Virus record (IMG/VR): IMGVR_UViG_2061766007_004303
Origin: an uncultured virus (IMG/VR IMGVR_UViG_2061766007_004303)
Taxonomy: Duplodnaviria; Heunggongvirae; Uroviricota; Caudoviricetes
Reading direction: 5' to 3' (one strand)
Length of the DNA: 28,511 nucleotides
Made by a program: the position numbers and the translations under genes
Part shown: positions 3,110 through 22,075 of the stretch, piece after piece
Numbering within the stretch: the stretch's first letter is position 1
Layout: every line of letters starts with the position of its first letter
The notes under the pieces: model-generated
What the model saw: the letters and a program-made list of their open reading frames with translations, nothing else
Told to the model about the DNA's origin: nothing
Databases searched by the model: none

Positions 3110-4292
3110 TTATTTGATGCGGGATGGTGTCGAATCTACGGATTCAACAAGGGCAGTGTATTTTTTCAGGTTAGGATTCCATCGAAGGAACGAGGAAACA
3201 GCACGACATCCCCGCGTCCAGAACCAGCAGACATATCCCCACATGACGCGTCCCCATGCACCATGTTTCGGCAAGTAATAGATTCGCCGTATCATGTCCG
3301 GGTTATGCGTTCGGATAATCTCCAGAGCTCCTTTGATCATATGCCCCTGGGCTTCATGCCTGCTCAGGGAAAGCGATACATTTTCCGGTTCGCCGAGTTT
3401 GCCGCGCAGTTCGAAGATCCGGCGGAAATCAGCTGCTTTTTTCTGGTCTGCCTTGAAATCCGCAATCACATCCGCAGGGAAAAATTCAGGGAATGCCGCC
3501 AGCAAATCTCCCGGATACGGCAAATGCCAACGGATCGCCATATTACGAAGTTCCGNNNNNNNNNNGTATGATCACCGCAGCATCGGTAAGCAGTTTTGGA
3601 ATATGAGCGTGATAATACGATTGCGATGCGGCATGACGGGTGAGCATGAGCAGGTTCATTTCCGGAGACAGCACACGTTGACCGTCTCCGGCGGGATACT
3701 CCATCGTATGGTCCCACATCTCGTGCAAATCTACGTCGTTGAAGTTCGCCAACGTGAAATGAGGCTCGACCGTGTACTGACCTCGTACATGCGGAGAAAA
3801 ATGGTGTTTCGCTGTTTTGAATGCGGCTTCATTGGCGTCCGAATAATGCTCCGGTACTTTCCATCCGTCTTCCGCCAGTACAGCGAGCGCACGTTCACAA
3901 TCATCCGGATGAAACCAGATGTCCCAGTCGTTAAACACGCGCAATGCGGTGTCCGGGTATAAGCGATAAGCCAGGTCCGCACCTTTGATCGGCGCGAACC
4001 TCAGCCCCTGCGCGGCAAGCATACGATAGAGACGTTTCAGTTCTTGTTCTCCAAGGATCGCTTTCGCCTGATGCGCCTGATAGTTTTTCCGGTATTCCAC
4101 TTGCTCCGACTTCGGCAGGACATCGTACAGATACCGATAGAACCATGCCGTCAGACCGAAGTTTCTTACATCGGCTTCCAGTTCGACGCATCGAAACTTG
4201 TTCTGACTGCTATAATACTTCTTAGCATCACCGAAGATACAGGCGCCAAGAAACTGTAACAATGAAGTCGGAATTCCGTAATCGTAGCTCAT
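3110..4292 (-). CDS. Nucleotidyltransferase family protein (NTP_transf_5-like, the type found in lasso/RiPP clusters)
   Basis: Motif IKGADLAYRLYPDTALRVFNDWDIW matches LKG..L...Y.....R...DxD, with VEPHF and LTRHAASQ downstream. The two ORF-track pieces (3543-4292 and 3110-3541) are split only by the N-gap at 3556-3566. The start overlaps the peptidase stop (ATGA). Confidence 0.85.
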
Positions 4293-4903
4293 AGCTCACT
4301 TCCTTCTTTCATCTTGATCTCCTCGGAACACTCGGATTCCATGTCCGACATTTGAGCCGGAATCCTGAAAAAAAGACGTTNNNNNNNNNNNNNNNNNNNN
4401 NNNNNNNNNNNNNNNNNNNNNNNNNNNNNNNACTGTACAGTCCCATCGCGGAATCTCGTTTCTTTTCGGGCCGGGATTCGTAGAATTCCCAGCTTCCGGA
4501 AAAACGGAAACAGATTTCCGGCTGTTCTTTTGAACCGGAGAATCCGCTGCTGGCGATAAAAACGCCTCATCCCGTAGTATCCGCCGTCCACCTGAAGGAC
4601 GACCTTCGGTGATTCGCCGGGAATCATTGCCTCCACGATCATGAACTTGCTTTTTCTTGTCAGTTTCATCTCGTCCGACTGGGGGTTGTTGTCCCCCATA
4701 GTGACTGCATAATCCGGGGTTTTATCGATGATACGATGAACATAGTGAGGTGTACGGTCGAATACGGCTACGATGTCGCCGCATTCCAGCATGCCGAACG
4801 AAATACTGCTCAGAAGCAGGATATCTCCGTGCTTGAACATTCCGCGCATACTGTTCCCGGTATAGTATGCCTTGGTGAAGTCGTCCAGTTCACTCATCAA
4901 CAT
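4289..4903 (-). CDS. S24/S26 signal-peptidase-like protein, soluble Ser/His type
   Basis: YTGNSMRGMFKHGD (catalytic Ser box), GDIVAV, YVHRII and TMGDNN. No N-terminal TM helix. N-gap at 4381-4431. Confidence 0.85.
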   Translation of the reverse strand: MLMSELDDFTKAYYTGNSMRGMFKHGDILLLSSISFGMLECGDIVAVFDRTPHYVHRIIDKTPDYAVTMGDNNPQSDEMKLTRKSKFMIVEAMIPGESPKVVLQVDGGYYGMRRFYRQQRILRFKRTAGNLFPFFRKLGILRIPARKETRFRDGTVQXXXXXXXXXXXXXXXXXXRLFFRIPAQMSDMESECSEEIKMKEGSEL

Positions 4904-4995: not shown

Positions 4996-7352
4996 TCATA
5001 CTTGCAAGCTCGCAAGAAGTCCGTTGTCGGATTCCTCGAATACCAGCTCTGAGCTGAACCCGAGGAACGCGCCCATACCGGACAGCAAGTCGAACTGTTC
5101 CTTGTCCCCGGGGCTGTTTTCACCGAACTTCAGCGTGATCCTGTCTGCCGTTACTCCGGTGACCGTAACACTGTTGTCGCCGTCCGTGTAGGTAAGCAAT
5201 TCAGCATTCCAGTTCGATTCATCACCGCTGGTGAACCAGAGCGTGACGGAGCCAGTCGCGAGCTGTTCCACGGTATCCGTTCCCCAGTTCTCGCAGAACG
5301 TAAACATATCATCCCCACCACCACCGTGCATACGGTCGTTGCCGATGCCACCCGCAATCACGTCGTTGCCGGACGCACCAACAATACGGTCATCTCCTGC
5401 GTCGCCGAACAGCTTATTCTCGCTTTTGTTCGCCCAAAGCGTATCGTTGCCTGCGCCGCCGCGGATCGTCAGGCCATTGCCAACGTATTCAAAGCGCTGG
5501 CTGGTCATATCTACGATGTCATCTCCGGCACCGCAGCGGATTTCGTTAATCCGGGCAATACGTGACTGCTGTGTTTTGATTTCCTCCGGCAATTCCGTAA
5601 ACTCGTCGTCCACGAATATCGCGTCTCCGTTTTCATCATCGGTCAGGCACAGGATATTGGCGTCGTCCGAGCCGAAGAAGAAGCTCTTGATCCGGTTCCT
5701 TCCGTCTGCGGAAACGATCTCGTTCGTTCCAGTCCAATCGTCAATGGAGCCAACGTGCTGGGCATAATACCCGACCTCCCAGTTCTCGTCCGCCGTTGCG
5801 AAGAAAATGTCCCCATCCCCGTCTGAATTGGACTGCAGCACCTTCGGCTCGCCGGGAATGTCGTCGGAATGGATCTCGTTTCCCTCCACCCATTGGTCGC
5901 TGTCTTCGATTCGGACACGCCACTGGTACGTGCCGGCAGGCAGTGCCAGCATATCCAGGGCGTTTGTGGCTGTCGTGACCTGAATGCCGTGCAGGAAGCT
6001 GTCCACGCTGTATTCCACCACGCATCGTCCCGCTTCGGCCGTTTTCCAGCTCACTCGATCCTTCGTACCCATCAATTCCTCCGGTACAGGACTCGGCGTC
6101 TTCACCTCAAGCGTCAGGGAGGAACCGCTCAGGTTCAACGTGAAGTCTTCGTCTCCGATTCTGATCGTGTCGCCGACCATCAGCGTGCCGAGGATGCCTC
6201 CGGATGTGTTCACCACGGAAATCGTATCTTTGAACTCATCCGCACCGCCCGCGAGTGAATAGACGCCCGCTTCCGCAGAATCGGCNNNNNNNNNNNNNNN
6301 NNNNNNNNNNNGGAAAGATCATTCACCAGCACTTCCGCACCCGCGGAGGTCTGCGTTAAATCGAAGTCCAGGGTTGCGCCGTTGCAGGCAGAAACGGATG
6401 CACCGGATTCAAACATCATTGTTCCGGCCAATCTGCCTCCACTGGAGATGCAAACAAAACCGCCGGAATTAGCGGTGATGCCATGCACTGTACCCAGTGC
6501 CTCAAATTGGCCGTCGGAGTTGACTACTGTATTATTTGCCCTGCCACCTTTATAAATATAAAAAGAGCCATCAGCATTGACAGTCGTATTGTTTGCCACG
6601 CCGTCTTTGCGGATATCCATACTGCCACTGGTCATAACGGTGTTGTTCGCTATGCCGCCACTGGAAACAAAAAGAAAGCCATCAGCTTTGACGGTCGTAT
6701 TGTTTGCCACGCCGCCATAACGAAGATCAACACAGGCATTGGAATTGACCTCAGCGAGATTTGCCGTACCGCCGTTGCGGACAATAACAATACTGAAGCT
6801 GTTGACTGTAACGATGTTCGCAATGCCGTCGCTGGAAACCCAGACTTCCCCGCCTGAGTTGACCGTGGTGTCGTTCAGTATGCCATGAACATCCAGACGA
6901 CCGTCGGAGTTGACGATCGTGTTGTTTACTTTGCCGGAGGTGTAGACATAGAGTTCCCCTTCGGCATTGACCGTAGCATTGTTTACCTCGCCGCCGTCAT
7001 ATACATCAAGGTTGCCGCCGGCGTTAATGATGACGTTATTCGCCGTGCCGCCACTGGAAACAAAGAGAATGCCCTCGGCTTTGACTGCAGCGGCAGACGC
7101 GATGCCGGTGGAACTGATGTACATACGGCCGCCAGAATTGAGAACCGTGTTGTAGGCCGTGCCACCTGAATGAATAAAAACAGTTCCACTTTCGTTGACC
7201 TCGGTATAGTCTGCTGTACCGTAGACTTGGACCATACCATCCTTGTTGACTGCAGTCTTGGTCACGATACCACCGCTGCATATGATCAGGGAATCATTTT
7301 CGAGGATGATTCCGTCGGAAGAGTCTCCGCTGGAAATAATGTATTCAGCCAT
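4996..7352 (-). CDS. AIDA-type beta-helix repeat protein with C-terminal RTX Ca-binding repeats (~780 aa, secreted)
   Basis: The N-half has ~19-aa VSSGG.ANNT.VN..G repeats. The C-half has GGAGNDTL, GDAGDDRI, ASGNDVI, GIGNDRM and GGGDDMF nonapeptides. The two ORFs are joined across the N-gap at 6286-6311. No signal peptide. Confidence 0.85.
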
Positions 7353-7695: not shown

Positions 7696-8695
7696 TTATG
7701 TGTTTGTTATCGTTGTTTTGTTGTTGCGAAGCTTCCTGTTTTCTTCGGCCAGTTTTGTTACCATGCCGTACCGGTTTCCGCTCGGCACATCAAGCAGCCC
7801 GGTTCCCTTGATAAAATCGTAGATCAATTCGCTCCCCCAGTGTTCCACCGCCAGACGAATCGTGTCCTCTGTGATTTCCGGCAGCCCCATCAATTTGTCC
7901 AGCACTCCGCATCTCAATACGATGCCGATGGAGTCCACCAGGAACTGGCGGGCGGCGTATTCATGCCGGTCACGCAGGAACTCTTCGATCAACGGCAGGA
8001 TCTCGCTTGTCGAGCACATCTGCTCGAATTGCCTCGCCGTAGGGGGCGATGAAAACACCCCGGCTCCGAGGAACCGGTATTCATAGTACGGACCCTCCAC
8101 CACGCTCCGGAACGTCTTTGCATAGTACAGAAGGAAAAACGTAATGTACAGGTCCGTGAATTGTTTGAGCTCAATATCGGGCATGCTTTCCGCCGCTGTA
8201 CGGCAAATGTTCCCCCGGTAGATCTTCGTATAAACGTTGTGCGGGAACCGGTGCATACAGAAGCAGTCGTACAGGATCTTTTCCCCGGACGATTCCATCG
8301 GCCGGCATTGCAGAGACTTCATGAATGCGTCGATGTTTGCCCCTTTCTGGTGTTTCACGCGAATCGCGAACTGAAGGATATCCACATCGTACTCTTCGAT
8401 CAGCCGTACCGCGTTCTCGCATGCTCCGGGCAGCAGAATATCGTCCGAATCCACGAACATCACATACTCCCCGTTCGCCTCAAGCAACCCCATTTTTATC
8501 GCCAGGACGATTCCGCGGTTCTTCTCGAAGCCGTAAAGACGCAGACGATTGNNNNNNNNNNNNNNNNNNNNNNNNNTCATTGAGGCAAAGCACCTCGATT
8601 TCGCGCAGGGACTGCGTTAAAACCGATTCCAGGCATTCCCGCACAGTCTTTTCGCCGTTGTACACGGGGATGATGATCGATACTTTCGGCTTCAT
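7696..8695 (-). CDS. Family 2 glycosyltransferase
   Basis: MKPKVSIIIPVYNGEKTVRECLESVLTQSLREIEVLCLN, then (after the N-gap at 8552-8576) NRG...GEYVMFVDSDD (DxD). The ATG at 8693-8695 overlaps the kinase stop (ATGA). Confidence 0.92.
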
Positions 8696-9357
8696 CGTGT
8701 CTCCAGGCTTTCCAGATAAGTTTCGATCACGTGGATCGGATTCCCCTCCAGCACGGTCAGCAGTGCGCGAGGCGGGAACATACCTGTGATGATTTCCGTC
8801 TGGGTTCGGAGGATCTTCGTCAGGCGCTCTTTCATGCCTCCGGGAAGAGCATTTGCCGCTGATATGAACCAGTAGAACATGGACCGGTAGCACTGGGCAA
8901 AGAACTGGGCATCCTGAATCGGGACGATCTCGTCAAGCCCGGATTCGCTTCGCCCAAGAGCGAGCACTCCGGCAAGCGGGATTTCCTCGCCGGATGGATA
9001 GTTCCATTCGTTCCGGCCCTCCCTGCATACGCTCCACGTCNNNNNNNNNNNNNNNNNNNNNNNNNNNNNNNNNNNNNNNNNNNNNNNNNNNNNNNNNNNN
9101 NNNNNNNNNNNNNNNNNNNNNNNNNNNNNNNNNNNNNNNNNNNNNNNNNNNNNNNNNNNNNNNNNNNNNNNNNNNCCGTCTCCAGCGTCGCACAATGGAC
9201 CAGGAGCGCTTTCCCGCCGTGCAGGATCGAATTCAAACAGGCGAAGATCAGTGTCGCCTGCCAGACATAATTCCGGTAATAAACCGGAGTTCGAGGCTCC
9301 CGTTTCCAGCCGGCGATCAGGACCTGGTTCCAATCCTTTGCGTATGCAATTTCCGTC
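8692..9357 (-). CDS. HprK-related/ScmC-like P-loop kinase, paralog 2 (5' end hidden in an N-gap)
   Basis: Reading 9356 downwards gives ...YVWQATLIFACLNSILHGGKALLVHCATLET[gap]TWSVCREGRNEWNYPSGEEIPLAGVLALGRSESGLDEI...QCYRSMFYW. It is clearly paralogous to, but different from, 9368-10092. Confidence 0.75.
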   Translation of the reverse strand, partial: DGNCIRKGLEPGPDRRLETGASNSGLLPELCLAGDTDLRLFEFDPARRESAPGPLCDAGDXXXXXXXXXXXXXXXXXXXXXXXXXXXXXXXXXXXXXXXXXXXXXXTWSVCREGRNEWNYPSGEEIPLAGVLALGRSESGLDEIVPIQDAQFFAQCYRSMFYWFISAANALPGGMKERLTKILRTQTEIITGMFPPRALLTVLEGNPIHVIETYLESLETR

Positions 9358-9367
9358 NNNNNNNNNN

Positions 9368-10092
9368 TTCCAGAAGAACATCGACCGGTAGCACTGCGCG
9401 AAATACTGCGCCGCGCTCAGCTCCACGATCTCGTCCCGCCCCGTTTCGCTGCGCCCCAGAGCCAGGACGCCGATCAACGGCAGTTCTTCCCCCGAGATGT
9501 AAATCCATTCATTTTTTCCCTCCTTGCAGGCGCTCCACGTCGGCATCCGACGTACATACACCGTTTCCCCTCCGGTGAAATCCAGCAGCGCCATGTCGTC
9601 TGAAATACATTTCCCTCCTTGTGCACGCCATCGCGCCGATGCCGTGCTTTTCCCCATGCCGCTTTCCCCGAACAGCAATACCACCCCTCGTTCCGTTTCC
9701 AATGCCGCACAATGCACCAGCACCGCCTCCGCCCCGCGAAGGATCGCGTTCTCCCCGGCCAGGATCAAGCCTGTCTGCCACGAATACAGTGCGTACTTCC
9801 GGGCGTCGCGCGGCCGGACCTCGCGGCAGCGGAGCAGAAGGTGTCCCCGGTCCGGCGGCAGCCCCATGCTTGTGGTTTTTGCCAGCTGGTGCCATTCGAC
9901 CCCGTCCGGAGCATTTCCAGGCAGGACCAGTTCCGCGTCCGGGATCCCGGATGCGATATCATCCATTTCTTCCGTTTCCAAACCGAGAAGCGTCCCGAAT
10001 TCCGCGAACGGCAGGTCTGCCTCCGGGCAATGCGTCTGCACGCGGATGGCGTCATGATTGTGGAGGCGGATCGTGATTTGTCGGGTATACAT
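9368..10092 (-). CDS. HprK-related/ScmC-like P-loop kinase, paralog 1 (3' end hidden in an N-gap)
   Basis: LVHCAALETERGVVLLFGESGMGKST (H-x-A plus Walker A), ISDDMALL (DD motif) and MPTWS. The likely start is ATG 10092, because the TTG at 10179 lies inside a terminator hairpin. Confidence 0.82.
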
Positions 10093-10138
10093 AGGCTGGT
10101 GAAAGAATTGTCTTGTCTTCTCGAAAATGCTCGGGGGT

Positions 10139-10181
10139 AAAAAGAATGTTTGCACTGCGACGTTTCCCTCGCAGTGCAAAC
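10139..10181 (-). terminator. Rho-independent terminator/attenuator after the precursor peptide gene
   Basis: Perfect 13-bp stem GTTTGCACTGCGA / TCGCAGTGCAAAC (10148-10160, 10169-10181) with an 8-nt loop, followed on the minus strand by ATTCTTTTT. A second imperfect hairpin lies at ~10185-10208. Confidence 0.75.
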
Positions 10182-10226
10182 GGATTACTTGTGATGAATC
10201 ACAGGTAAGTACTGATGAGACGGATA

Positions 10227-10370
10227 TTAATCCAGGTCATCATCACTCGGCTCTTCGCCGCCACTGGGCTGGGTTTCCCCGTAGAGCACCGGCGTCGAGA
10301 CAGCCGTGATGTCGAGGATGGCAGGAGCCTCGTAGGGCTCCTGCGCGAAGGATTTGTTTTCAAATTTCAT
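10227..10370 (-). CDS. Putative RiPP precursor peptide, 47 aa: MKFENKSFAQEPYEAPAILDITAVSTPVLYGETQPSGGEEPSDDDLD
   Basis: Translated by hand; it is below the ORF-track cutoff. An AAAGGA RBS sits 10 nt upstream. YEAPAI matches the YxxPxL RRE-binding leader motif, the tail is acidic and Ser/Thr/Gly-rich, and it sits at the head of a kinase/PqqD/peptidase/ABC cluster. Confidence 0.85.
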   Translation of the reverse strand: MKFENKSFAQEPYEAPAILDITAVSTPVLYGETQPSGGEEPSDDDLD

Positions 10371-10413
10371 AGTTTGTTATCCTTTCTTTGTAAGGTTTGT
10401 TGTTGGTTGATGA

Positions 10414-13400
10414 TTAAGCGAGCTGCGAGAGGACCATGGCGTTGTTCTCGTCGATGCTCAGCTTGTAGTCCGCGGTGACCCATGCGCCTTCCTCGAAGCT
10501 GGCACCAACGCCGTCGAACTTGACGGAATCGGACTTGAAGCTGTCGAAGCCCGCGAAGTTCGTGGTGTCGCCGAAGAGCGTCCAGGAGTCGAGCCCGGTG
10601 GCCTCGAAGTAGTCGCCGATACCCTTCAGAGTCAGCGTGTCGCCCGCGAAGTCGTTGATGAACGCGCCGTTCAGCGTGCTGCCGGCTTCGAACGTCCAGT
10701 TCTCGACATTGGACAGCCTGACCGTGTTCTGCAGCGTGGCGTTGGTGTCGAATCTGTCTTCGTCAAGGAGCTCTTCGCCGTTGCTCAGGACCTCGACATC
10801 GGAGAAGCCGGAGACGAGGCGGGAATTGATTGCGGCCTGGAAACCGGTGAAGGAGAGCGTGCGAGANNNNNNNNNNNNNNNNNNNNNNNNNNNNNNNNTA
10901 GTCCGAACCGCAGCCGCCCCAGATTTCCTTGACGACCAGAGCATCGGCATCGTCGGACTGTCCGGCCAGCGTCAGCTTCGTGGTCTCGACCTTGCCGGAA
11001 CCGAAGGAACCGACGAACAGGCAGCCAGCCATGTTGATCTTCTCGGCGCCGCCGACCGTGAGGGTCACGTTGGAGGATTCGACAAACGTGCAGGAAGAAG
11101 AGGACTTCTTGTTGCCGTAGTTGCCGCCGTACACATCCTTCGCGAACGAACCGCCGTTGATCTTCAGGTTGGTGCTTCCGACTTCCACGGAACCCTGCAG
11201 GTTTTCACCCTGGTACAGGATGCCGGTGGCAACGTAGTTCCCGAAGGTACCGCCGTTGATCGTCAGGTTGATGTCGGCGAGATTGCCTTGCGCATCTTCA
11301 CGGTAATAGACGGCTCTGCCGCTTGCAACGTTGATTCTGTCGCCGCCAACCACGACCTTCGTGAAGCTCCCACCCTCAATCGCGATATTGATATCACCAC
11401 CGAGGTTCACGCCGGCGCGTCCCGTCGTAGCTTCGGTATACTTGCCGCCGTAAATACCGACGGNNNNNNNNNNNNNNNNNNNNNNNNNAACTGCCGTTGC
11501 CCTGGAGGAACAGCGTCGAGGTCGCGCCGCCTTCGATGACCACGTTATCGGCGTAGTACACATTCTCATCACTATCTTTCCAAGAGTAGTTAAGAGCCTT
11601 GTTGATGGCCGTGTTGCCGGTAGCCGTGATCACATTGGTGGCGTCCTTAATCAGGGTGAGTGTCTTCCCTTCCGCATCGAAGGCAAAGTACTTCTTCCAG
11701 TTGTTGGAGGCGTTTTTCCCGCTGATCGTGAGATTGTTATTGCGGAGACCTTCCGTAATACCAGTGATGGTAGCAGGAGCCGTATTCTTCGTGGCCGTGA
11801 GTCCGGTCACGTCAACATCGATTGTGCCGGAGAAGGGCTTCGTGGCAGGAAGAGTGAAGGCCAGCGTGGAGCTGACATCCGTGTAGATCTTGCCTTTGCC
11901 AGTGAGCGTACCGAGGTCGACAGTCATATTGCCGGACGGATTCTCGTCATCCTTATTGGTGGCATAGAACTCACCATCAATTTGCGAGGAGCTAGCCGTG
12001 AAGCTGAAGCCCTGATCGGCCTCGATCACGGAATTTGCGCCCAGCGTGAGCTTGCCGGTGATCGTGGTGTCGCGGTCGAACTCGACTTCGGAGGACGACG
12101 TGGTGCCGCTGATGGTGACATTGCCATTGATCGTGGCGACTCCATCGAAGTCCATGTCAGAATTCGTGATCACGACATTGCCATGGACGATGGTTGCGTC
12201 GGTCTTGGTGAGCTCGTCGGAGTTGACGCGGGAGTCGCCGGTGATCGACAGGACGGTCGCAGAAGATCCCTCGATTCCGATCGTGACAGCGCCTTCGAAA
12301 TCAACTTCGGATCCATTTTTGATGGTGACGGTATTGGCCGTCGCGCCTTCTTCGATGAAGACAACCGAATCATCGATGGTCACAGCTTTCGCCGAGAATT
12401 CGCCGAACGTAACGTCCGCATTCTCCTGGATGGTGACGCTCTTGCTCTCGGAGAAGTCGGCGCCTTCGAACACAGCGGTCGCGGCGGCAATGGAGACGGT
12501 CGCGTTTGTACCGGTAGCGACGTCATTGATGAACTCGATGGATCCGGCGGTAATACCTTCATCATCATCATTAGGCTCTGTCACCTCGGACGCGATGATC
12601 AGGTTGTTGAAATTGAACGTACCAGCAACCAGTCTGCCGGTGGCATTGATCATGTCAACGGTAAGATCCTGCGTTGCAGAGAGGTTCAGATTCAGGTTGC
12701 CGTAAGCATCTTCCTGAGGCACGAAATGGATAAACTCGGTATCATCCGCGATCTGCGTGATGGCATTGGCGGAGGTGAAAGCATTCACAGCATACACATA
12801 TCCATGACCGGCAAACGAGAAGGACTCACCGGGGGCATACTCAGTTGCAAGATCGCTGTACACAAGCAGCTCGGTCATGTCGGCATCGCCGCCGAAGAGG
12901 TACACACCCTTGTTATCACCGTCGTTCTTGACGAAGACCTGGAGATCAGGATTGTTCACAACAATGTCGCCGTTGTTCGCCAGGGTTCCGGTCACGGAGA
13001 TGACCCTCACCGTGTTGTCTTCTCCCAGGACGAACTGGCTGGCGTCGATCGTGATCGTGCCATTGTTGGTGAAATTCTTGACCGTGAACGCGGATTCGAC
13101 GTTGACATTGGCATTGGCATTGTTCACGAAATTGCCCGTCTGAATCGCAGCAGCGTCTTCAGCGGCGTCGATCGTGATCGTGCCACTGTTCGTGACAGCG
13201 CCGAACACGCCGCCGGCGATCGTGAGTTCACCGAGGTTCGTGACAGCGGCGGTATTGCCTGTTTCGCCGACAATAGAAACGGAGGCTGTGGAGGCTGTGA
13301 TGTCGAGCGTGCCGCCCTTGACCATTGCGGTGACGTTTGCGCCGTCAGCCAGCGTGATGGTGCCGGTGAGCTTGCTGATATTCAGGCTGGCGGTGCCACT

Positions 13401-20779: not shown

Positions 20780-21382
20780 ATGTCGCACTTAACCATCAAA
20801 GAGCGTCTCAAGATCGAACACTGGCTGAACGAAGGCCACAACTTTCAGGAAATCGCGGATTCCCTGAAGAAAGCAAGGTCGACGATCGTCCGGGAAGTCA
20901 GGAAACATCGAAAGGAGAGTCGGGAGGCCGGATACAACCGGATACCGAACTGTTGCATTCATCGCAGGCAATGCAAGCTGAAACATGTGTGTATGCGCGC
21001 CCGGTGTTACCGCCAATGCAGCACATGTTCCCTGTGCAACGAGTATTGCTCTCAATTTCAGGAAGAGCGTTGTGCAAAACTGGAGGAACCGCCATATGTG
21101 TGCAATGGATGCCGGGAGAAGAATCAATGCACACTGAAAAAGCAGTTTTATGTTCACGATGCCGCCGAACGGGAATACCGAAAACTGCTTGTTGAATCAC
21201 GAGCTGGAGCGAATATCACGGAGGAAGAACGACAGTTCCTCAGCGAACAGATTCACCGCGGGATTCAGAAAGGACAATCCGTCCATCACATCCTCGAAGC
21301 AGAGAAGGATCATGAACGCGTTTACGGAGACCGTGAAGAAATATCCGACCCAGCGCATGGATCACAGCTATCTCGCCCTTAA
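20780..21382 (+). mobile_element. IS30-family transposase with Cys-rich insert, truncated before the DDE domain
   Basis: HLTIKERLKIEHWL...EIADSLKKARSTIVREVRKH (HTH_38-like), Cys cluster ending PPYVCNGC, then Y...LVESRAG and GQSVHHI. Homology appears to stop at ~21310 and no catalytic domain follows. AAGGAG RBS. Confidence 0.88.
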
Positions 21383-21748: not shown

Positions 21749-22075
21749 TCATTCTGTTTTCTTGACTTGATAATAAATGGACGTGTTATATAAAACATTA
21801 TTGANNNNNNNNNNGATATTCTCCTCATCAAATCGAATCTTTCTCGGAGATAAAGCAATTTGAGAAATGTAACCTTTTTTCACATATCCTTTAAGCGTCG
21901 GACGTGATACGCCAAGGATTCTCATTGCGTCTCTAGCTTCGATCAGGTGACGTTTTTTTGAATTTTGAGGTGCTGTCTGTGTACACGCGAACAAAATGCC
22001 CTCTGCGTTTTCCTGAGAAATCGTTTCGTCCATATCAAGGATTCTTTTGAGAATATCCAAAGTTGTAGCTTTCAT
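21749..22075 (-). CDS. Excisionase/AlpA-like helix-turn-helix protein
   Basis: LIEARDAMRILGVSRPTLKGYVKKGYISQIALSPRKIRFDEENI. GAGG RBS. The true 3' end is uncertain because of the N-gap at 21805-21814. Confidence 0.8.
   Translation of the reverse strand: MKATTLDILKRILDMDETISQENAEGILFACTQTAPQNSKKRHLIEARDAMRILGVSRPTLKGYVKKGYISQIALSPRKIRFDEENIXXXXNNVLYNTSIYYQVKKTE

Follow-up and report, generated by a model that had tools for sequence, protein, structure and literature searches.

The stretch of DNA analysed here, referred to throughout as the window, is the 28,511-nucleotide IMG/VR record IMGVR_UViG_2061766007_004303, and it contains a small open reading frame (ORF) of 47 codons on the minus strand, taken here as a gene of an uncultured rumen bacterium (Lentisphaeria). 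This ORF most probably encodes a precursor analogous to LppA, from which a linear peptide, phosphorylated and probably glycosylated as well, would be made by a pathway of the linear polyphosphorylated peptide (LPP) type; we put the probability of this at about 0.75. All five LPP core gene types, in the set as defined in PMC13381572, are present in the window together with the precursor gene and in the same orientation. The peptide gene, the synteny around it, its motifs and the catalytic and binding residues of the associated enzymes are conserved in related genomes.

The ORF translates as MKFENKSFAQEPYEAPAILDITAVSTPVLYGETQPSGGEEPSDDDLD. It is preceded by a Shine-Dalgarno-like AAGGA whose end lies 9 nt from the ATG, and its product contains no cysteine, with Y30 as the last aromatic residue. 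The first-pass annotation of this DNA, made from the sequence alone, had described a ribosome-binding site, an ATG and a 47-residue precursor lacking Cys and lacking aromatic residues after Y30. Its coordinates, ribosome-binding site and ATG agree with our analysis, and the residue numbers that it gave (Y13, P16, L29, Y30, G31, T33, S36, E39 and S42) are all correct. Scans of the peptide against Pfam and NCBIfam returned no family match. The public protein collection contains the exact peptide and most of its homologues, either without a name or labelled 'hypothetical protein'. One homologue (L037, 47 aa) is a Victivallis lenta protein, also labelled 'hypothetical protein', that is found on 876 contigs.

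Related loci were collected with the neighbouring kinase gene as the anchor. There are 11 close loci, from rumen and gut metagenome-assembled genomes (MAGs) of Lentisphaeria, in which the kinases are 50-62% identical. A homologue of the small ORF is found upstream of the kinase in eight of these, directly so in seven, and in L010 the homologue lies 2.6 kb upstream of the kinase with a second giant gene (see below) in between. At L008 the Tyr of the copy is replaced by Cys, and no clear start codon can be seen. The three close loci with no homologue by the kinase (L002, L006 and L007) belong to genomes G461, G215 and G459, each of which has a homologue on a different contig. Among eight more distant loci, with kinases 31-46% identical, a small ORF of the same design adjoins the kinase in six, and the genomes of the other two (G496 and G497) carry such ORFs elsewhere. 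The genomes of the five kinase loci that lack an adjoining peptide all hold homologues on other contigs. The scan for short ORFs upstream of related kinases, which the first-pass annotation had proposed as a check, was positive at both distances.

A profile built from the homologues gave E-values of 1e-14 to 4e-22 per genome in six-frame searches. Across the order, the peptide profile matches 19 of 251 genomes and the kinase 61, and all 19 are included in the 61. This search missed the L038 peptide (G508), which is itself part of the model, so its negatives are soft; the co-occurrence of peptide and kinase is suggestive rather than proof, because a peptide was missed and the genomes are related. 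Only three real matches were found in a sample of 401 genomes from the phylum, so the peptide family is narrow. Three weak matches from the same sample (L016-L018) lay inside long unrelated ORFs and were discarded.

We aligned 25 distinct peptides from Lentisphaeria/Victivallales (an earlier subset comprised 18). Y13 and P16 occur in every one of them and G31 in at least 90%. The N-terminal part is rich in K and E and continues with Y-(E/Q)-x-P-x-(I/V/L)-x-(D/E)-(I/L/V), a short hydrophobic run and the conserved Gly, which lies 15-19 residues from the Tyr. The tail after the Gly is 11-23 residues long and strongly acidic (D+E 32%, G 17%, P 13%, S 11%), with a single basic residue, an Arg, in 297 (no Lys and no His) and no Cys. 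Pairwise identity averages 0.41 up to the Gly and falls to 0.21 in the tail. The conserved YxxP leader and the variable, acidic, hydroxyl-bearing tail of the first-pass annotation are thereby borne out. Strain variants of the peptide differ conservatively or synonymously and keep Y, P, G and Ser.

These observations confirm that the ORF is real and more than a chance reading frame. It is short and matches no family in Pfam or NCBIfam, as might be expected of a fortuitous reading frame or of untranslated spacer DNA that separates the kinase operon from the giant gene. Such an explanation would have to account for 25 distinct homologues with intact frames, the invariant Y and P, the near-invariant Gly, the AAGGA, six-frame profile matches down to E 4e-22, and strain variants that change conservatively or synonymously. 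Since the small ORF is conserved, we take this explanation to be excluded for practical purposes.

The variable tails often finish in a sequence resembling P-(D/E)-x-x-x-D-L, which in the window is EPSDDDLD (region of residues 41-47) and in seven other peptides is ...PDL; this ending may be a recognition or export signal. The last residue across the family is D, G, E, F, L, V, W, S, N, I or P.

A Ser lies no more than six residues past the Gly in 17 of the 18 aligned peptides of the subset, where shuffled tails give a mean of 9.9 and none of 5000 shuffles reaches 17. With the Gly chosen mechanically the same is true (positions 1-6) of 19 of the 25 peptides, against a shuffle mean of 11.8, and 9 of 5000 shuffles reach 19. 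In 20 of the 25, position -3 relative to the proposed cut holds a hydrophobic residue.

LPP biosynthesis was reported by Popov et al. (Nat Commun, May 2026, PMC13381572), and the following is taken from that paper. The type cluster is lppA-K-B-S-D-N of Paenibacillus alginolyticus DSM5050 and relatives. LPP clusters are described as having no macrolactam cyclase, and their precursors are 35-200 aa long, conserved at the N-terminus, which contains YxxP, and variable at the C-terminus. LppK adds several phosphates to Ser3 of the LppA core. LppS cuts after T-1, 16 residues past the Tyr, only when LppB presents the leader, and F-3 of the leader is required for cleavage of LppA. In LppB, D70 holds the leader Tyr and N33 holds the Pro kink. 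The authors call the LPP systems restricted to Bacillota. Six supplementary files of the paper contain no entry for Lentisphaer*, Victivall* or Verrucomicrob*, and a full-text search of the literature gave no further relevant paper on LPP-type systems.

We propose that the 47-aa precursor is handled in a similar way, with the order and chemistry of the steps carried over by analogy from the Bacillota system. A PqqD-type RiPP (ribosomally synthesised and post-translationally modified peptide) recognition element (RRE) would bind the leader through Y13-x-x-P16-x-I18. An HprK-like kinase would phosphorylate a Ser just beyond the boundary of leader and core; S36 is the best candidate, with T33 and S42 as alternatives. 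A nucleotidyltransferase (PF14907) and a family-2 glycosyltransferase (GT2) may extend the phosphate, a step from which glycosylation of the product is predicted. A signal-peptidase-like protease would then cut at or beside G31, with the leader presented by the RRE, releasing the acidic core of about 16 residues, ETQPSGGEEPSDDDLD, for export by an MsbA-like ATP-binding cassette (ABC) transporter. Binding, phosphorylation and cleavage of the peptide are predicted here from sequence, and the same holds for the position of the cut and the phosphorylated residue.

The enzymes of the cassette were identified by scanning 35 window ORFs against domain families (Table 1). The window is read in part as N, so some of its frames are artificially broken; all genes from about 20.2 kb down to 1.4 kb lie on the minus strand. 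The PqqD partner and the S26-type protease that the first-pass annotation had named are both supported by domain matches. Residues N31, D69 and F73 of the RRE are invariant in all 17 Lentisphaeria RREs. The P-loop of the kinase, GESGxGKST, is kept in 19-20 of 20 homologues. In the protease, which resembles no named family other than archaeal-type signal peptidase I, S18-M19, H56-R57, G70-D71-N72 and D77 are invariant in 14 of 14 sequences. The nucleotidyltransferase scores 99.8 bits for PF14907, above the cut-off of 31.2, and both halves of its split ORF match single genes of 396-397 aa in L001 and L009. The exporter has no C39 peptidase domain.

At one locus (L007:7135-9492, plus strand) the protease and the ABC exporter are fused in a single ORF of 785 aa, as would be expected of a leader peptidase coupled to export. 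The fusion resembles the peptidase-exporter fusions of bacteriocin systems, yet has a serine signal-peptidase fold. For the protease, a search with one narrow pattern gave 12 loci, all in Lentisphaeria, and a homology search gave 255 proteins, at least 120 of which are closely related and either lack a name or are called 'hypothetical'. These searches neither tied the protease to LppS nor separated it from LppS.

Directly upstream of the peptide gene lies the gene of a giant repeat protein, a link that the first-pass annotation missed. Further large repeat-protein genes precede this gene of about 1,700 codons in the window. A gene ending in the conserved C-terminal domain of the giant protein is found directly upstream of the peptide and on the same strand in 22 of 27 peptide loci (15 of 19 and 7 of 8), the gap from the tblastn match of the domain to the peptide start being at most 303 nt. 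Two of the other five loci are cut by a contig end, and L008, L034 and L039 have no domain-ending gene. Ten pairs of giant gene and peptide are far from any kinase gene. Five genomes contain 13 of the C-terminal domains between them, nine of which are followed by a detected peptide gene and one directly by a kinase gene.

A fold model of the C-terminal domain has a predicted local distance difference test (pLDDT) score of 84. The structures that it matches best are autotransporter beta-helices at their C-terminal ends, with Z-scores of 6.9 or less, which are weak and of a size that is common; the autochaperone region of IcsA, at 6.9, aligns over 123 residues (VIA-align). A Foldseek search of the PDB with the model found nothing at E <= 0.001. 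The model suggests that the domain is the end of a beta-helix, and no more than this.

A terminator-like hairpin is found 46 nt past the stop codon of the peptide gene, before the kinase gene. Its predicted folding energy is -32.8 kcal/mol (z -5.8), and none of 200 shuffles folds equally well. A similar hairpin follows the L001 homologue, as judged by eye. The hairpin is not general, as the kinase begins 20-60 nt past the peptide in most loci.

Two studies, with four RNA libraries between them, provide contigs over the 3' end of the giant gene. One of these, X14, is a 382-nt contig of a single library that spans 10221-10608 and joins this 3' end to the whole peptide ORF. Within the ORF it differs from the window once, by a synonymous change, G>A at 10272, which by our reading of the frame affects the last base of codon T33. 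In about 160 bases of the giant gene's 3' end upstream of the ORF there are 14 substitutions and 6 gapped bases. The strand, ends and abundance of an RNA cannot be read from contigs of this kind, and some may derive from carried-over DNA; X14 therefore hints only weakly at expression and at purifying selection. No contig in the four RNA-library runs covers the kinase region at 9449-10183, and the contigs are no evidence of silence or termination there.

The peptide could instead be a small unmodified partner of the giant beta-helix protein, acting as a cap, chaperone, anchor or secretion co-factor, while the kinase/PqqD cassette acts on another substrate. This would suit the 22 of 27 loci with the giant gene directly upstream, the ten pairs away from kinase genes, the nine of 13 domains followed by a peptide gene, the RNA-library contig that joins the two genes, and the hairpin that separates the peptide from the kinase. 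It sits poorly with the invariant YxxP, which is the motif bound by PqqD-type RREs, and with the retention of the binding residues in the window RRE. In addition, all 19 peptide-positive genomes have the kinase, the L034 and L039 peptides adjoin kinases without a giant gene, and scattered precursor genes are normal for RiPPs. We consider an unmodified partner unlikely; partnership with the giant protein is in any case compatible with modification, and the two can be combined.

Such a combination can be phrased as a wider hypothesis. From the neighbourhood counts and two loci in the genome G018, the giant protein and YxxP peptide pair looks like a module served by different tailoring cassettes. 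In Victivallales, YxxP-leader precursors and giant beta-helix surface proteins might form a fixed two-gene module, in which the mature acidic phospho- or glycopeptide is a dedicated ligand or co-factor of the conserved C-terminal cap, for example an anchor, an aid to folding or secretion, or a calcium-loaded adhesion partner. Kinase-only LPP-like cassettes or SynChlorMet (SCM)-like cassettes with radical SAM enzyme and kinase would serve this module. We offer this as a tentative idea that is rather doubtful in its full form, and any role of the peptide with the giant protein is conjectured from gene order.

G018 is a Victivallis-like genome of 5.5 Mb with two more giant-protein domains, at L059 (C34:18500-23000) and L060 (C7:34800-39000). 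They are followed by peptides of 46 and 53 aa, respectively, with YEKPEL and YAKPEL motifs and Cys-containing tails. The next genes at L059 encode a ScmE-like radical SAM/SPASM protein (E 4.8e-57), a ScmC-like and a ScmD-like protein, which together with the candidate precursor make up a SynChlorMet-like cassette. In another genome, G132, an identical 42-aa precursor gene is found no more than about 10 nt from the end of contigs C9 (L040) and C31 (L032), which suggests that repeated giant genes upstream break the assemblies.

Several observations weigh against an LPP-type precursor. The link of the peptide gene to the kinase gene is looser than its link to the giant protein gene, and the co-occurrence of peptide and kinase could reflect common ancestry inside one order. 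The kinase matches are under the curated cut-offs (ScmC-like E 1e-11, HprK_rel_A E 7.8e-7, Hpr_kinase_C E 4e-3), as is the TIGR02228 match of the protease (32.6 bits, cut-off 51.85). In the stretches of DNA fetched around 21 kinase loci, 14 loci have the protease, five the nucleotidyltransferase and five an ABC gene. The window locus may itself be mis-joined, because its kinase region contains N runs and two kinase copies. As to the peptides, the L046 tail has no Ser, in L027 and L047 the first Ser comes only at core position 8-9, and the shuffle controls overstate significance because the sequences are related. The LPP leader consensus given in PMC13381572, YxxPxVLxHQxIxFETxxS, is shared by the window family only as far as YxxPxΦ (Φ, hydrophobic). 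Beyond this point the family continues as (D/E)-Φ-x-(P-V-S/T or S/T-x-L)...Φ-x-G, in place of the VLxHQxIxFET of LPP. Lastly, a profile of the RRE searched against the PDB matches TbiB1 of a lasso system (E 1.6e-6) ahead of LppB (E 2e-4), TfuB1 (E 1.6e-3) and PbaB1 (E 0.012), and this search does not place the RRE in the LPP clade.

A lasso peptide is a further reading to consider. The first-pass annotation had noted that G31 and E39 could close a nine-residue ring, and had doubted this. For a lasso precursor whose cyclase and B2 protease are encoded elsewhere in the genome, one can point to the leader type YxxPx[ILV] and to the conserved Gly 15-19 residues past the Tyr, where the first residue of a lasso core would be. 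The kinase, nucleotidyltransferase and GT2 are also the tailoring genes of paeninodin- and pseudomycoidin-type clusters, as these are described in PMC7533575 and PMC13381572. The peptides themselves argue otherwise: an acidic residue at positions 7-9 is found in 15 of 25, under the shuffle mean of 17.1, the tail has no bulky plug residues, and no Thr is conserved at -2, where Y, E, Q, L, T, H, A, R and others are found. No gene resembling an Asn synthase or a transglutaminase turned up among the 35 window ORFs scanned, and in five related but incomplete MAGs nothing scored above the cut-off for PF13471; the genome-wide search covered this family and not PF00733. In place of these enzymes there is a dedicated signal-peptidase-like protease. 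The doubt about the ring was thus well placed, and we regard a lasso precursor as extremely unlikely.

Another reading is a precursor of the SynChlorMet type, cross-linked by radical SAM enzymes acting with ScmC and ScmD; the first-pass annotation had labelled the cassette as ScmC/ScmD-type. In NCBIfam, the kinase scores best as ScmC and the PqqD protein as ScmD, and G018 shows that a ScmE/ScmC/ScmD-like cassette with a YxxP precursor can stand behind a giant-protein gene. The scores in the window are well below those of equivalogs (ScmC 44.7 bits, cut-off 125; ScmD 42.1 bits, cut-off 100), there is no radical SAM family among the ORFs scanned, and the window peptide is free of Cys. The window therefore differs from the SynChlorMet systems (TIGR04248-TIGR04251: ScmD, ScmC, ScmE, ScmF) in having no radical SAM/SPASM gene and only sub-equivalog scores. 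The label does not hold, and a cross-linked SynChlorMet product is very unlikely here. The same annotation had called the precursor type poorly defined; this no longer applies, because the gene set is that of the LPP clusters published in May 2026.

Table 1. Positions of the precursor gene, its parts and the neighbouring features in the window.
Feature	Position	Strand	Evidence and remarks
Giant repeat protein gene, ~1,700 aa	15501..10414	minus	Frame broken by masked stretches; 43 nt before peptide gene
Conserved C-terminal domain of giant protein, last 150 aa	10417-10866	minus	Alignment
Precursor peptide gene, 47 codons + TAA	10370..10227	minus	ORF call, conservation; ATG 10370-10368, TAA 10229-10227
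Proposed leader, M1-G31	10278-10370	minus	Putative leader/core boundary
Proposed core, E32-D47, ETQPSGGEEPSDDDLD	10230-10277	minus	Putative leader/core boundary
Terminator-like hairpin, 13-bp stem with 7 G-C pairs, then ATTCTTTTTA	10181..10148	minus	Site search and folding
HprK-like P-loop kinase, visible part 241 aa	10092..9370	minus	C-terminus lost in 10-N run
Second kinase copy, N-terminally incomplete	9357..8692	minus	Other frame; 135-N run inside
Family-2 glycosyltransferase (GT2), accessory gene	8695..7696	minus	PF00535, E 5.6e-11
PqqD-type RRE, 86 aa	7682..7422	minus	PF05402, E 2.4e-15
AIDA-type strand-loop-strand repeat protein	7352..6210	minus	Domain match; inside cassette
RTX calcium-binding repeat protein	6216..4996	minus	Domain match; inside cassette
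SipW/archaeal-type signal-peptidase-I-like protease, proposed leader peptidase	4903..4289	minus	TIGR02228, E 6.5e-8
PF14907 nucleotidyltransferase, ~394 aa	4292..3110	minus	E 2.3e-28; one gene split by masked stretch
MsbA-like ABC exporter, 569 aa	3101..1392	minus	ABC_membrane E 1e-26, ABC_tran E 2.3e-26, MsbA_rel E 9.8e-67

The kinase region contains N runs at 9358-9367 (10 N) and at about 9041-9175 (135 N). The second kinase copy begins at about residue 80, and its stop codon (TGA) overlaps the GT2 start codon (ATG). Related loci have one kinase only, of 290-300 aa. The tandem copies may be a true duplication, a scaffold join of paralogous loci or an effect of masking. The GT2 gene adjoins the kinase in the window and L001 alone, that is in two of 21 kinase loci.

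The AIDA-type and RTX-type proteins are encoded between the PqqD and protease genes and have no hydrophobic N-terminal signal that could be recognised by eye; no membrane-fusion or outer-membrane partner of a type I system is in view. At L011 (7851-10808) the equivalent place is occupied by a single protein of 985 aa with both AIDA and RTX repeats. The giant genes of the window are flanked by helix-turn-helix genes (HTH_38, HTH_17) at 20780-21382 (plus strand) and 21749-22075 (minus strand). Genes for tyrosine recombinases (phage integrases) lie downstream of the cassette in L005 (11873-12706) and L010 (11691-12707), and the cassette region may be mobile or prone to recombination. Outside the cluster, a fragmentary sulfatase-modifying factor (FGE) domain match (E 3.5e-10) is found at 57-731 on the plus strand.

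If the ORF is an LPP-type precursor, then the enzyme logic of LPP extends beyond Bacillota to Lentisphaeria of the gut and rumen, which have a cultured human-gut relative in Victivallis lenta. The different leader, the very short acidic cores and the strict neighbourhood with giant beta-helix proteins are new. This neighbourhood provides a handle on function that the capsule-locus clusters of Bacillota did not offer and, were the two-gene module to be true, it would give LPP-type peptides a concrete and testable function. Since the leader type and the giant-protein context are common to both, the LPP gene set is connected to the uncharacterised SynChlorMet-type cassettes.

The system can be compared with others that pair a kinase with a PqqD-type protein. 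The HPr-rel-A system (TIGR04352, HprK-related kinase A, and TIGR04353, PqqD_rel_X) likewise pairs a distant HprK relative with a PqqD-family chaperone; the matches in the window are weak (28.5 bits with a cut-off of 200, and 19.7 with a cut-off of 35). The tailoring systems of paeninodin and pseudomycoidin type (PadeK/PsmK, PsmN and GT2), as portrayed in PMC7533575 and PMC13381572, have in common with the window the combination of kinase, PF14907 protein and GT2, and a leader of the [Y/W]xxP type that a PqqD-type RRE recognises. Their phospho-Ser anchors further decoration, much as we propose for the window peptide. Unlike these clusters, the window has no cyclase, no B2 cysteine protease and no C-terminal Ser, and its leader would be removed by a serine protease.

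The closest likeness is to LPP itself, again as laid out in PMC13381572. The window has a PqqD-type RRE in which N31, D69 and F73 align to N51, D88 and F92 of PDB 9x8z_B; these would be N33, D70 and F74 of LppB, the residues that hold the Pro and Tyr of the leader, at an offset of +18, which also fits V35 and C39. Its kinase appears to be of the HprK-like type, judging from distant similarity and the retained P-loop. Its protease is of the SipW/archaeal signal peptidase I type, and the residues S18, H56, D71 and D77, invariant in the 14 sequences, would from their spacing include the counterparts of LppS S29, H68 and D93. Both the nucleoside triphosphate (NTP)-transferase (PF14907) and the MsbA-like exporter are present, and a macrolactam cyclase is missing from the window cassette as from the LPP clusters. 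The peptides of the window family fall within 35-200 aa and have a YxxPx[V/L/I] N-terminus with a variable C-terminus. The Tyr lies 16 residues from the cut in LppA and 15-19 residues from the Gly in the window family, and both have a Ser near the start of the core, at position 3 in LppA and 1-6 residues past the Gly here. The window family differs in coming from the diderm Lentisphaeria/Victivallales rather than Bacillota, in its short, strongly acidic core (11-23 aa, compared with 45 aa in LPP), and in its neighbourhood of giant beta-helix/RTX-type proteins in place of capsule loci; its precursor genes, unlike those of LPP, are often scattered. The kind of system has been known since 2026, whereas the design of leader and core and the tight link to giant beta-helix proteins are new.

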